Assembly (NCBI GenBank): GCA_001724265.1
Contig: MEDY01000040.1
Span: 62,001 to 116,897 of the forward strand
Direction of reading: 5' to 3'
DNA from: Rhizaria sp. SCN 62-66
Taxonomy: Eukaryota
Length of the DNA: 54,897 bases
A program made the position numbers and the translations under genes. Below, one piece after another: positions 8,021-52,036 of this stretch. A model generated the notes under the pieces. That model saw only the letters and a list, made by a program, of their open reading frames with translations. It did not search any database and had not been told where the DNA came from. How positions within the stretch are numbered: the stretch's first letter is position 1; every line of letters starts with the position of its first letter.

Positions 8021-9952
8021 ATGTCCCTCCCCTTGCTCCCGGCGCTCACTACGGGCGGCCCCGCGCTCCTGGCGATTTCGCCATGTCATTCTGCGACAGA
8101 TGACTACGCAGTGCCTCTTGTGGCCGTGCTTGCCGCGCTCTGGCTGTGCATGATAGCCTCTTGCTGGCTGTCGCAGCTCTGCGTCGTCTCAACCCGCTCA
8201 GTACTGCGCTATGGCAAACTGCAGCCAAACACGGCCGCAATCAACGCCAATTTAAGCAAAACCGCACATCGTGACTCCCAAGCTAGTAATCCCGGTTACT
8301 TCAAGATGCTGTGCAGTTCTGTTGCGGATTCTCTCTATATCAACCGCTCGACGGCGTTTGCGTCCTATTATGCCACCGCCATAGGCCTCTTTGCCGTGCT
8401 CGCAGTGTCATTCTCACTCTCTCTCACTCTTGCCACGGAGACAACTGGCGCTACTGCAACTCTAGCTGCTACCAACGTTTATGCCGAGACTGCAAGTGCG
8501 AACGCGAGTGTGAGTGTTGATGATGCTGCCGTTGGTGTTACAGTTGGTGTAGTGCCCGCATTGCAAGGCTTGGTCGCTGCATTCCTGTTGCTTTTGCATC
8601 TGCTGCGGCGGCTATGCGAATCTCTCCGTGACTGCTACTACGACTACAAAGCTGCGTCACTTCATAAGAGCAATAACAGCATTAGCGGCATCACCCACCA
8701 ACAGAATCAAGACAATAATGCACAGTCACATTCCCAATTACGGACGCAGCGGCAGTCTAAACAGCATATCTTTGTGTGTGTCGCTGGCTGTGTGTTTTAC
8801 GTGACACTTGTGCTATCGACGTTCGTGTCAAACAACCTCTTTGACTTGTCATTTATCTCGTCTTTCTTTTCAGCAACTGATAATAGTGACATTTCATCGT
8901 CTCTCTTGAATGTATCAAAAGGGAGTGCAAGCGCGACAGGGACTGCTCATAAGCTTGCCGCTCTATTTTCACTTATGCACTCACACAAATCACTCGTTCC
9001 CAGTCGCGACAACAACAGTGCCGCTCCAGCTCGCGGCGACAGCAGCCACTTATTGTCGCTCACAGTCACTTCGTAGCCGCTGCTCACGGTCACTCTGCTG
9101 TTGGACGCACTGCGTGTGACTGTGGGCGTTGCACTGTTTATAATTGCGACGCGCGCGCAGTTCAGCGCCCACAGTCAGTTGGCACGGCTGGCGGCACAGC
9201 GCCGAGGACTCACAGCCGTGACCTTGAGCAGCCGTGAAGTGACTGTGGGCAGCAGTGAGAGCCGGACCCAAAGCGCTGGCCATATCGTGGGTTTGAGTGA
9301 GAGGGCAGTGCTTGCGAACAACGATACTCATTGCGATGCAACAAACACTGTGAGTGACAGTGCAAACAAAGTAACTTCGAGTCAAGTGAACAGTTGTGGT
9401 TACAGTATCCCGACCGGTGATTGGTTCGAGTTTAGCTCGTCTCCGCACTATTTGGCAGAAATGCTGATCTATACCGCGCTCTTCCTGATCACATTCACTC
9501 CGACAACAACGTTCTTTGCAGCTCCAGCATCAGTCGCCACTAGTGGTGCTGAGTACTGCTTCCACGGCGGCTTAGTTTCGCACGCAGCGGGCTTACTTTC
9601 CGTCTCATACGCACTCGCCTACCGCACTTTGACTGCTGCCGGTGCGTCGCTTGTTGCAGTGCTTATCTCTGTCCTCAACGCAGCCACTGCGTCGACCTTC
9701 AGAGCCACAGGCCGCGTCCACACCAAGACTCTGAACGGTTTGCTCACGGTCGCTGTTTCACTGTGGGCGGCCGCGGTCAGGGCGCCGATGCTGCTGTGTC
9801 TGGTCTGGGTGTTGTCGAACGTTGGGATTCTGGCGCGGGAGACGCATGCGTGGTATTTGCGCGTGTTTGGCAAGGATTATCCCGTGAAAAGGGCGCCGTT
9901 GGTGCCCAAATGGAAGCTGAAGGCGCTCTTTTGCTGCGCTAAACGCACCTAA
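8021..9952 (+). CDS. SRD5A3: Polyprenol reductase (SRD5A3/DFG10, steroid 5-alpha-reductase family); single exon with an in-frame TAG at 9074-9076; ~643 aa if read through
   Basis: ORFs 7970-9076 and 9101-9952 are in the same frame, separated only by TAG. Upstream half has RYGK, HLLRRLCES and SKQH...GCVFY. Downstream half has QFSAHSQLARL, IPTGDWFEFSSSPHYLAEMLIY and ETHAWYLRVFGKDYP..R..LVP. Ends in TAA. Confidence 0.88.
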
Positions 9953-10332
9953 AGGCTGAACCTTAAGCACTAAATCACTTTCATGGTTGTTATATTAGTC
10001 AGATATATAGTATACATGGATATTGCTTCAATACATAGTTATCTTCTCACTAAGACCCAGTATATTGTTTTTTTCGTTTGTGACTCTTAGCGGCTCTCGT
10101 CTGAACGATTGGAGCCTCGATCTCCGTAACCTAGTATATCTACCATTTGATCGTCAAATTAAGCATAGCTTCAACACACGAATTTCACAGGCAATATACA
10201 CACTTAAATCTAATTATACCCCTTGAATTATTGTTAGCACTCTGCTTCAGGTCTTTTAGTCCCCACTCCTCGCACTCAGCTTGAACCCACATACCACCTC
10301 TCACTCAAGTGCAGACACCAGTGCTTGCCCTC

Positions 10333-51200: not shown

Positions 51201-52036
51201 GTCAACGCGGTGACAGAGCTAGAGCCTGTGTACGAGGAGGCGTACGACGGAGCGATCGGTGCCAGTCTCGCATTGCCGTGGTCCTGTGGGACAGCACCAT
51301 AGGGGTACTGCTACGCGTCACTCTGAGTGGCGCTACGGTTGATACCCCGCGCGATAGCGGCAGTGGCAGAGTTGTTATGGGGACTGCGGCCGCCGGCAAA
51401 GGCGCCGGCGAAGGCGGAGTCATCGGTGTAGGTGTAGTAGGCGTCGTAGTTATCGGCGGCGCCGCTGTTATTTTGGTAAGCTTTTGTGTTTAGATTTTTT
51501 GATTCTTGGTTATTTGTGGTGTAGTCGCTGTGACTGTTGTTGTATCCTATCGACGCCGCACTCGGCAGCGCCGTCGTCGGCTCCAGCGGTGAGGCAGGCT
51601 GCGACCGGTCAGACGGGAAGGTCTCATCGTGGGATACCAAGACGTGAGAGTCGGTGACCCGCTGAGAGTGATACAGCCCAAGAGCAGGGCCAGGCGGGGG
51701 AGGGGAGTACAGCGCAGGGGTCGGCGACTGCGACAAGGGCGCCGACTCAGGCTGTTGCGGCGACTGCAGCTGCAACGGTTGCTGCAGCTGTGACCGCTGC
51801 TGCTGCGGCGATAACGATGAGAGCAGGACAGACCGTTTTAAGCCCGACTCTGAGTCCAACTCAGTGGGGCAAAGCCTGTCAAGTCTGCCAGGATCGTTGT
51901 TGTAAGTGTAGAAACGGGAAGTCTTCGCCGCCGGTTGTGGCAAGTCACTACTGGAGTCGTCGTTTAAGTAGTTCGTGAAGTGGTTCGTGGTGTCCCAAGC
52001 CCTCTTCCTTTGCCCGTTGGACCGGTTTTCAGCCAT
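48263..52036 (-). CDS. Uncharacterised AT-hook-containing protein, ~1,257 aa, with two in-frame TAG codons (51313-51311 and 50059-50057)
   Basis: ORFs 51311-52234, 50057-51205 and 48263-49966 share one frame and are separated only by single TAGs, with open coding-like sequence on either side. AT-hook-like KRGRPPK at ~50335-50315. Ends in TAA. Start taken as MAENRSNG (52036). Confidence 0.7.
48548..48613 (-). repeat. Pure (CAG)22 microsatellite encoding poly-Gln
   Basis: Uninterrupted ctg triplet run on the + strand. Confidence 0.92.

Follow-up and report, generated by a model that had tools for sequence, protein, structure and literature searches.

Probable reassignment of UAG alone to sense in nuclear genes of an uncultured wastewater eukaryote

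UAG-only genetic codes

Uncoupling of UAG from UAA, by which UAG alone passes from stop to sense, is known from a handful of lineages: one rhizarian, exLh (UAG read as leucine), one fornicate, Iotanema (glutamine), one green algal genus, Scotinosphaera (serine), and a few ciliates, namely Protocruzia and several phyllopharyngeans (PMC11687900). The present study concerns a 54,897-nucleotide stretch of the metagenome contig MEDY01000040.1, called the window below and numbered from its first letter, for which an earlier note had proposed a further code of this kind from five in-frame TAGs in four genes. The rarity of such changes and the rhizarian, Iotanema and ciliate precedents invoked in that proposal agree with published accounts (PMC11687900, PMC5304391). 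In the main texts of the literature covered, supplements being outside its scope, there was no further non-ciliate case of UAG-only reassignment, none from wastewater, and no cercozoan reading UAG as sense besides exLh.

In exLh, which belongs to the Sainouroidea (Cercozoa), UAG encodes leucine while UAA and UGA remain stops; 384 UAG codons are reported in 71 genes, they stand at conserved leucines, and they are rarest in highly expressed genes (PMC5304391). Among the relatives studied, those nearest to exLh seem to have retained the standard code, and sainouroid cercozoans include free-living and dung-dwelling amoebae and flagellates (PMC5304391). In the fornicate Iotanema spirale UAG encodes glutamine, UAA and UGA again being stops, and is at about 8% a minority codon for that amino acid (PMC5304391).

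In-frame TAGs in four genes

In the organism of the window, UAG probably codes for an amino acid, and UAA and UGA still serve as stops, which would amount to a UAG-only change of the nuclear code. All five in-frame TAGs of the earlier note are present at their reported places: one in a polyprenol reductase gene (9074), one in a CEP41-like rhodanese-domain gene (23151), one in a giant gene (31021) and two in the gene of a 1,257-codon protein (50057 and 51311; Table 1). They would be ordinary, though very rare, sense codons within these four genes. The case for sense decoding is carried by exon-like flanks, by homologues that span the TAGs, by downstream frames that lack an early methionine (Met), and by the lack of genes that end in TAG.

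Under the standard code the reductase region falls into open reading frames (ORFs) at 7949..9076 (375 amino acids, aa) and 9077..9952 (291 aa), which become one frame of 667 codons once the TAG is read through. At TAG 31021 the frames 25678..31023 (1781 aa) and 31024..37740 (2238 aa) join in the same manner into 4020 codons, and the frames 51311..52270 (319 aa), 50057..51310 (417 aa) and 48263..50056 (597 aa) form a single open frame of 1338 codons when TAGs 51311 and 50057 are both read through. After TAG 51311 the frame remains open for 417 codons, of which the first Met is codon 346; after TAG 9074 the first Met of the 291-codon frame is codon 129, beyond a conserved motif. These downstream frames therefore cannot be separate genes.

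Neighbouring ORFs of one frame, each of 200 codons or more and parted by a single stop, form four pairs, all in sense frames and all with TAG; none has TAA or TGA, although TAG is the rarest stop trinucleotide in the window (742 of 3264). A threshold of at least 150 codons adds one TAG, one TAA and two TGA pairs, all in antisense frames of GC-rich genes. The 18 conservatively chosen coding segments, 11,094 codons in all, contain five TAG, no TAA, no TGA and no frameshift. The earlier observation that internal TAA, TGA and frameshifts are absent is thus upheld, with a count that is partly circular because the segments were picked as open frames. UAA and UGA were never met in frame inside genes, in what is a small sample. 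A coding score based on codon usage failed to tell sense frames from antisense ones among the low-complexity GC-rich genes and was left unused.

Homologues extending across the TAGs

The reductase matches the Pfam family Steroid_dh (E 2.8e-14), and a HMMER search with the region returned 445 proteins at E <= 0.001. The top two, P0129 and P0130, are identical to window 9116-9952 and 7997-9073, respectively; they lend no independent support, since they are the organism's own pieces, called under the standard code. Two other matches are single proteins that give one BLASTP alignment across TAG 9074: P0131 (528 aa; query 40-508, E 5e-23) and P0156 (648 aa; query 185-653, E 2e-19). The TAG column falls in a variable linker of the alignment, and the catalytic half of the enzyme is encoded after it. 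When the full reductase was used in a word-based search for homologues, nothing came up at E <= 0.001, low-complexity words having probably swamped the search.

In the rhodanese-domain gene the Pfam Rhodanese match (E 5.4e-06) aligns residues 257-314 with positions 12-73 of the 102-position profile and runs through TAG 23151. The best match among solved structures, centrosomal protein of 41 kDa (CEP41), is borderline (E 0.034); its alignment also runs through the TAG, which is paired with an aspartate in an acidic loop of the solved chain. Exon 2 alone matched no Pfam family. Taken with the Met-less downstream frames and the exon-type flanks, these matches indicate that the two sides of the in-frame UAG belong to one protein.

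Introns and the TAG sites

Introns of the window are spliceosomal and about 140-190 nucleotides (nt) long, with GTACGT, GTACAT or GTACGG as donors, and these donors are unusually uniform. The five confident introns have G contents of 0.09-0.17, T contents of 0.30-0.41 and GC contents of 0.29-0.46; as few A and G occur in them, they can stay open in frame. The katanin intron, which served as control, accordingly mimics an in-frame TAG where there is merely an intron end, and its composition is unlike that of the flanks of the five TAGs.

TAGs that lie within, or end, unrecognised in-frame introns would be spliced out and would need no decoding. Three of the five confident introns do end in TAG, so that such ends are common; acceptor-like TAGs also precede the DDRGK and S28 exons, and the linker around site 9074 is variable and lower in GC content. 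The composition of the flanks nevertheless makes this explanation very unlikely. Over 180 nt, nine of the ten sides are rich in G and poor in T (G 0.21-0.39, T 0.08-0.24), an exon-type composition that none of the five confident introns shows; the remaining side, downstream of 23151 (G 0.19, T 0.34), enters the intron that starts 24 nt after the TAG. GC at third codon positions (GC3) is 0.70-0.87 on six flanks: both of 31021 (0.87 and 0.82), both of 50057 (0.80 and 0.83), and those upstream of 23151 and 51311.

Suitable donors are lacking too. Upstream of the five TAGs the only frame-keeping donor of GTAC type is a GTACGC 144 nt before 23151, and it sits within sequence coding for a conserved rhodanese strand. 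GTACAT at 30984, 40 nt before 31021, was rejected as a donor: the resulting 40-nt intron would break the frame. No GTAC donor occurs within 900 nt upstream of 9074, and a GTGTGT 303 nt before that site was rejected as well, for it lies within a motif shared with the homologue P0131. The 180 nt before 9074 contain 0.21 G and 0.24 T, as against the intron values given above. Site 9074 is the least secure of the five, since local GC is only 0.33-0.6 and GC3 is flat, but GC3 is low in the entire reductase gene (0.55-0.64).

Termination

All of about 14 gene-end candidates are TAA or TGA. The earlier statement that no gene ends in TAG accordingly holds for these candidates, whose ends were defined with TAG read through; in non-circular form, no additional in-frame TAG is present in the last ORFs. 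Homology backs the ends of the reductase, of the S28 peptidase (where the end of the Pfam profile is reached) and of the Aida_C2 protein (near its end). UAG is therefore unused as a terminator in this small sample, in which rare use could escape notice, and the sample likewise gives no sign of an ambiguous code in which the same codon also ends genes.

A contig from a polyA RNA library (X5) covers 37633-37966 gap-free, which fits termination of the giant gene at TAA 37738. A perfect GTACGT occurs at 37710 on the plus strand, 30 nt before this TAA; it is probably not a donor, because the RNA-library contig is unspliced through the region. A 299-codon open frame (37807-38706, plus strand) follows directly downstream of the giant gene.

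Copies in other samples

Contigs, not raw reads, from other public data were compared with window 30800-50799 (20 kb), a comparison made noisy by repeats. DNA contigs from X2 and X3, which are samples other than the likely source, cover 49177-50799 with no difference, and a contig from X4, belonging to another study (2025), covers 50014-50575 with no difference; TAG 50057 is included in each. The contigs of X2 and X3 are identical piece for piece, although the two come from different studies and years, and a single data set may have been deposited under both. No pieces were listed over 31021.

Assembly or consensus errors would explain the TAGs if they were artefacts, and nothing specific points to them beyond the origin of the window in a metagenome assembly. 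They are scarcely credible: TAG 50057 is unchanged in the X2, X3 and X4 contigs and hence is not an assembly slip, and five substitution errors that all create an in-frame TAG would not be expected of a short-read consensus. Strain differences in coding sequence number six, three synonymous and three not, a number too small to test for selection. Among the 15 joints listed, 113 further ones being unlisted, none falls at the katanin intron used as control.

Weighing sense decoding

Besides the introns ending in TAG and the lower GC around 9074, a series of observations weighs against sense decoding. Five codons on one contig are a small sample. A tRNA search found no tRNA gene in the window, and no RNA contig crossing a TAG was listed within 30800-50799. 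Among 22 other metagenome loci (340 kb) taken as a control, eight junctions between frames of at least 200 codons were found, four with TAA, two with TGA and two with TAG. TAG is also very rare: 0.45 per 1,000 codons in the set of 11,094, and 0.42 per 1,000 in a reference set of 9,522 codons that includes four of the TAGs, about tenfold below CTA, itself the rarest of 16 sense codons tabulated in that set. Given the codon usage of the window, 60-63% of random single-base nonsense mutations would produce TAG, and five of five would be TAG with P about 0.08-0.10. Finally, the base after the TAG (9077, 23150, 31024, 50056 and 51310) is C in four of five cases (p 0.014, against a baseline of 24% C at first codon positions). 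Going by the control loci, junctions alone are not rare; what is unusual here is that all are TAG, that their composition is of coding type and that the downstream frames lack Met. The earlier argument from the exclusive occurrence of TAG survives as a pattern but is weaker than was assumed, as about 60% of random nonsense changes would give this codon.

The same mutational bias would favour true premature stops, whether in young pseudogenes, as population-fixed nonsense alleles or in genes for truncated proteins, and the affected genes are long, of low complexity and probably weakly constrained. Such stops are nonetheless highly improbable. Five nonsense changes would have arisen with no frameshift, TAA or TGA in 11,094 codons, and the absence of frameshifts argues against decay, a rejection that relies on a rough assumption about indels versus substitutions. 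Moreover, up to 2,238 codons stay open after a TAG, GC3 remains high after the TAGs, the reductase would be without its catalytic domain, and samples from other years and from another study carry TAG 50057 unaltered.

In eukaryotes termination is weakest with C at position +4, and read-through is favoured both by this C and by a CAR triplet. Of 12 true stops with better support, one alone has C after it, and CAG directly follows two of the five TAGs. UAG might then still be a stop, the four genes being expressed by near-cognate leaky read-through or by mRNA editing, with no dedicated tRNA; A-to-I editing that turns UAG into UGG occurs in sexual-stage mRNAs of some filamentous fungi. The context of the TAGs, their great rarity and their absence from the conserved seryl-tRNA synthetase (SerRS) gene, which has zero in frame, and katanin gene speak for this explanation, which is all the same unlikely. 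Of about 15 genes, four would rely on an inefficient process, one of them (P0002, the 1,257-codon protein) twice; the process would have to yield a protein of 3,960 codons and an enzyme with its catalytic half encoded beyond the stop; and TAG terminates none of about 14 genes. As to editing, neither a letter difference nor, among the joints listed, a joint occurs at 31021-31023 or 50057-50059 for the RNA library X5 or for X4, a run of unrecorded kind, RNA cover of these sites being not shown. With n=5 the excess of C is a lead only, and it hints either at an inefficient or young reassignment or at context-dependent read-through.

The encoded amino acid and a possible mechanism

None of the five TAGs falls on a conserved column in the reductase and CEP41 alignments. 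A model of neighbouring residues, trained on the window proteins, ranks glutamine first, about 4x over proline and about 11x over leucine; this signal is weak and arises mainly because two of the TAGs are followed by glutamine. CAG is the commonest possible one-step precursor (29 per 1,000 codons), and glutamine is the usual outcome of reassignment in other lineages (PMC11687900). For these last two reasons the probability that UAG means glutamine is put at about one half; for leucine it is about one sixth.

If UAG is sense, it would be decoded by a tRNA with anticodon CUA, most likely derived from tRNA-Gln(CUG) by one anticodon change, which would make UAG a glutamine codon, and recognition of UAG by the release factor eRF1 would be weakened. 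Decoding is probably inefficient, or the change young, given that UAG is this scarce, is missing from the conserved genes of the window, which are presumably well expressed, and mostly precedes C. Its rarity together with C after four of five TAGs suggests that the release factor may still compete at UAG, contrary to what a UAG-blind eRF1 would predict. The lineage might even have been caught early in the reassignment, with a suppressor tRNA and a partly UAG-competent eRF1 coexisting and UAG, already translated yet very rare, restricted to long genes of weak expression and to the context in which termination is weakest, a natural 'ambiguous intermediate'; this extension of the sense-codon reading is a tentative one.

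Genes of the window and the source organism

The window is nuclear DNA of an intron-bearing, uncultured eukaryote of wastewater and bioreactor communities: the public runs that carry stretches of it come from seven studies and are metagenomes of bioreactors, wastewater, activated sludge and microbial fuel cells. Its GC content is 58% overall and 41-74% per 2 kb. The proteins include members of, or matches to, the Pfam families Exo70, Aida_C2, Steroid_dh (the polyprenol reductase), seryl-tRNA synthetase, Snapin-like, S28 peptidase, rhodanese, katanin p60 (AAA and MIT), RCC1 repeat and DDRGK, and two very long low-complexity genes have no recognised family. No Rfam family matched within the window, and the eRF1 gene is not among its genes. 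Katanin together with the CEP41-like gene suggests a cell with centrioles or flagella. The SerRS gene was the standard against which introns were judged and was used to place the organism.

Table 1. Positions of the in-frame TAGs, confident introns and principal genes in the window
Feature	Position	Strand	Remarks
TAG no. 1	9074-9076	+	codon 376 of open frame; variable linker before transmembrane helix of reductase
TAG no. 2	23151-23153	-	inside rhodanese domain; 8 codons (24 nt) before the exon's GTACGT donor
TAG no. 3	31021-31023	+	joins 1781- and 2238-codon frames of giant gene
TAG no. 4	50057-50059	-	1,257-codon protein gene
TAG no. 5	51311-51313	-	1,257-codon protein gene
Confident intron (n=5), katanin gene; control	41759..41896	-	138 nt, GTACGT...TAG; in frame, no other stop; G 0.14, T 0.41
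Confident intron	22958-23126	-	
Confident intron	52971-53107	+	
Confident intron	12235-12427	-	
Confident intron	11530-11670	-	
Polyprenol reductase gene (SRD5A3/DFG10-like)	8021..9952	+	single exon as far as seen; first ATG 8021; ends TAA
Seryl-tRNA synthetase gene	11245..13012	-	3 exons: 13012-12428, 12234-11671, 11529-11248; TAA stop
CEP41-like rhodanese-domain gene	22802-23942	-	TAG-bearing exon 23127..23942; next exon starts 22957
Giant gene, 3,960 codons	25858..37740	+	Ala/Ser/Gln/Asn-rich low complexity; transmembrane/hydrophobic stretches; no domain recognised
Katanin p60 gene	39819-42040	-	AAA and MIT domains
1,257-codon protein gene (P0002)	48263..52036	-	no Pfam family; ends TAA

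In the giant gene the GC contents at codon positions 1, 2 and 3 are 0.63, 0.56 and 0.73. The 1,257-codon protein consists of two non-repetitive blocks with long low-complexity linkers. Between its gene and the convergent RCC1-like gene lies a 2.4-kb AT-rich stretch (45900-48260; 41% GC) whose plus strand is purine-rich; a convincing ORF was sought in it (45.9-48.2 kb) and none was found. A 651-nt contig of the X5 RNA library matches there with only its first 311 nt (45939-46249), and its depth of 13.5 is the highest among the eight X5 pieces listed.

The SerRS gene gives a hint about kinship. With its exon B, metagenome relatives show 78-89% identity, and named fungi and dictyostelids 69-75%. 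In a tree of the spliced protein the window falls in a clade of ten metagenome sequences outside Fungi and Dictyostelia, the best full-length identity being 72%. When longer rows were added, this clade lay within a group of 26 rows (Shimodaira-Hasegawa-like approximate likelihood ratio test, SH-aLRT, 94), whose only named member is an unidentified MMETSP cercozoan (taxid 136419). One gene and one named row thus give no more than a weak hint of cercozoan kinship. Plant SerRS was the most distant in the tree, and the trees contained no fornicate sequence. Katanin homologues carried no lineage signal, their best named matches (63-66%) being from chytrids, arthropods and plants.

DNA relatives were sought as well. 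A scan of metagenome contigs with SerRS exon B yielded 80 loci, the best at 74%, and missed both the organism's own contig and the protein relatives of 81-89%; a scan of genome contigs yielded mostly SerRS loci from metagenome-assembled genomes (MAGs) labelled archaeal, the best (69%) from a MAG labelled Elusimicrobia. No close DNA relative was found in either scan.

Comparison with known systems

If sense decoding holds, the window would represent a further case of a UAG-only code, possibly of independent origin and possibly at an early stage. An independent case would add a data point on how often UAG and UAA become uncoupled. Should UAG use prove truly sparse and bound to context, the organism could show an early stage of a stop-to-sense change. 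An ambiguous intermediate, if that is what it is, would be present in an organism found repeatedly in wastewater reactors and open to enrichment. There is a practical side too, as gene callers that apply the standard code cut the organism's proteins at TAG; the reductase is already public as two pieces, P0130 and P0129.

In the ambiguous codes of Condylostoma, Parduczia and Blastocrithidia (UAA), the release factor may still partly recognise the reassigned codon and context could matter, as could be the case here with C at +4 after four of five TAGs. They differ in that the same codon also ends genes there, whereas TAG ends none of about 14 genes in the window. Phyllopharyngeans, Protocruzia tuzeti and the green alga Scotinosphaera (UAG read as serine) share the uncoupling of UAG from UAA (PMC11687900). 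With its 58% GC, long G-poor introns and gene contents, the window is unlike a ciliate genome, which is a judgement and not a test, and the distant position of plant SerRS argues against a green alga.

The meanings of all three codons would be those of Iotanema if UAG is glutamine here, and there, too, UAG is a minority codon for that amino acid. In the window, however, TAG would make up about 1% of glutamine codons and introns of 130-200 nt are many; the SerRS tree, with no fornicate rows, gave no sign of kinship.

The likeness to exLh would lie in the reassignment of UAG alone, with only UAA and UGA terminating, in UAG apparently being rarest where expression is high, and in the grouping of the window's SerRS with a cercozoan in a single-gene tree. 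That hint is of interest because the sole rhizarian known to read UAG is a sainouroid cercozoan; any kinship between the two would be conjectural. The differences are those of abundance and of position. exLh has 384 UAG codons in 71 genes versus five in 11,094 codons here, a contrast that also tells against sense decoding; and UAG, which is frequent at conserved leucines in exLh, occurs here at 0.45 per 1,000 codons and at no conserved leucine, or indeed at any conserved site, while its neighbours weakly favour glutamine over leucine by about 11:1.

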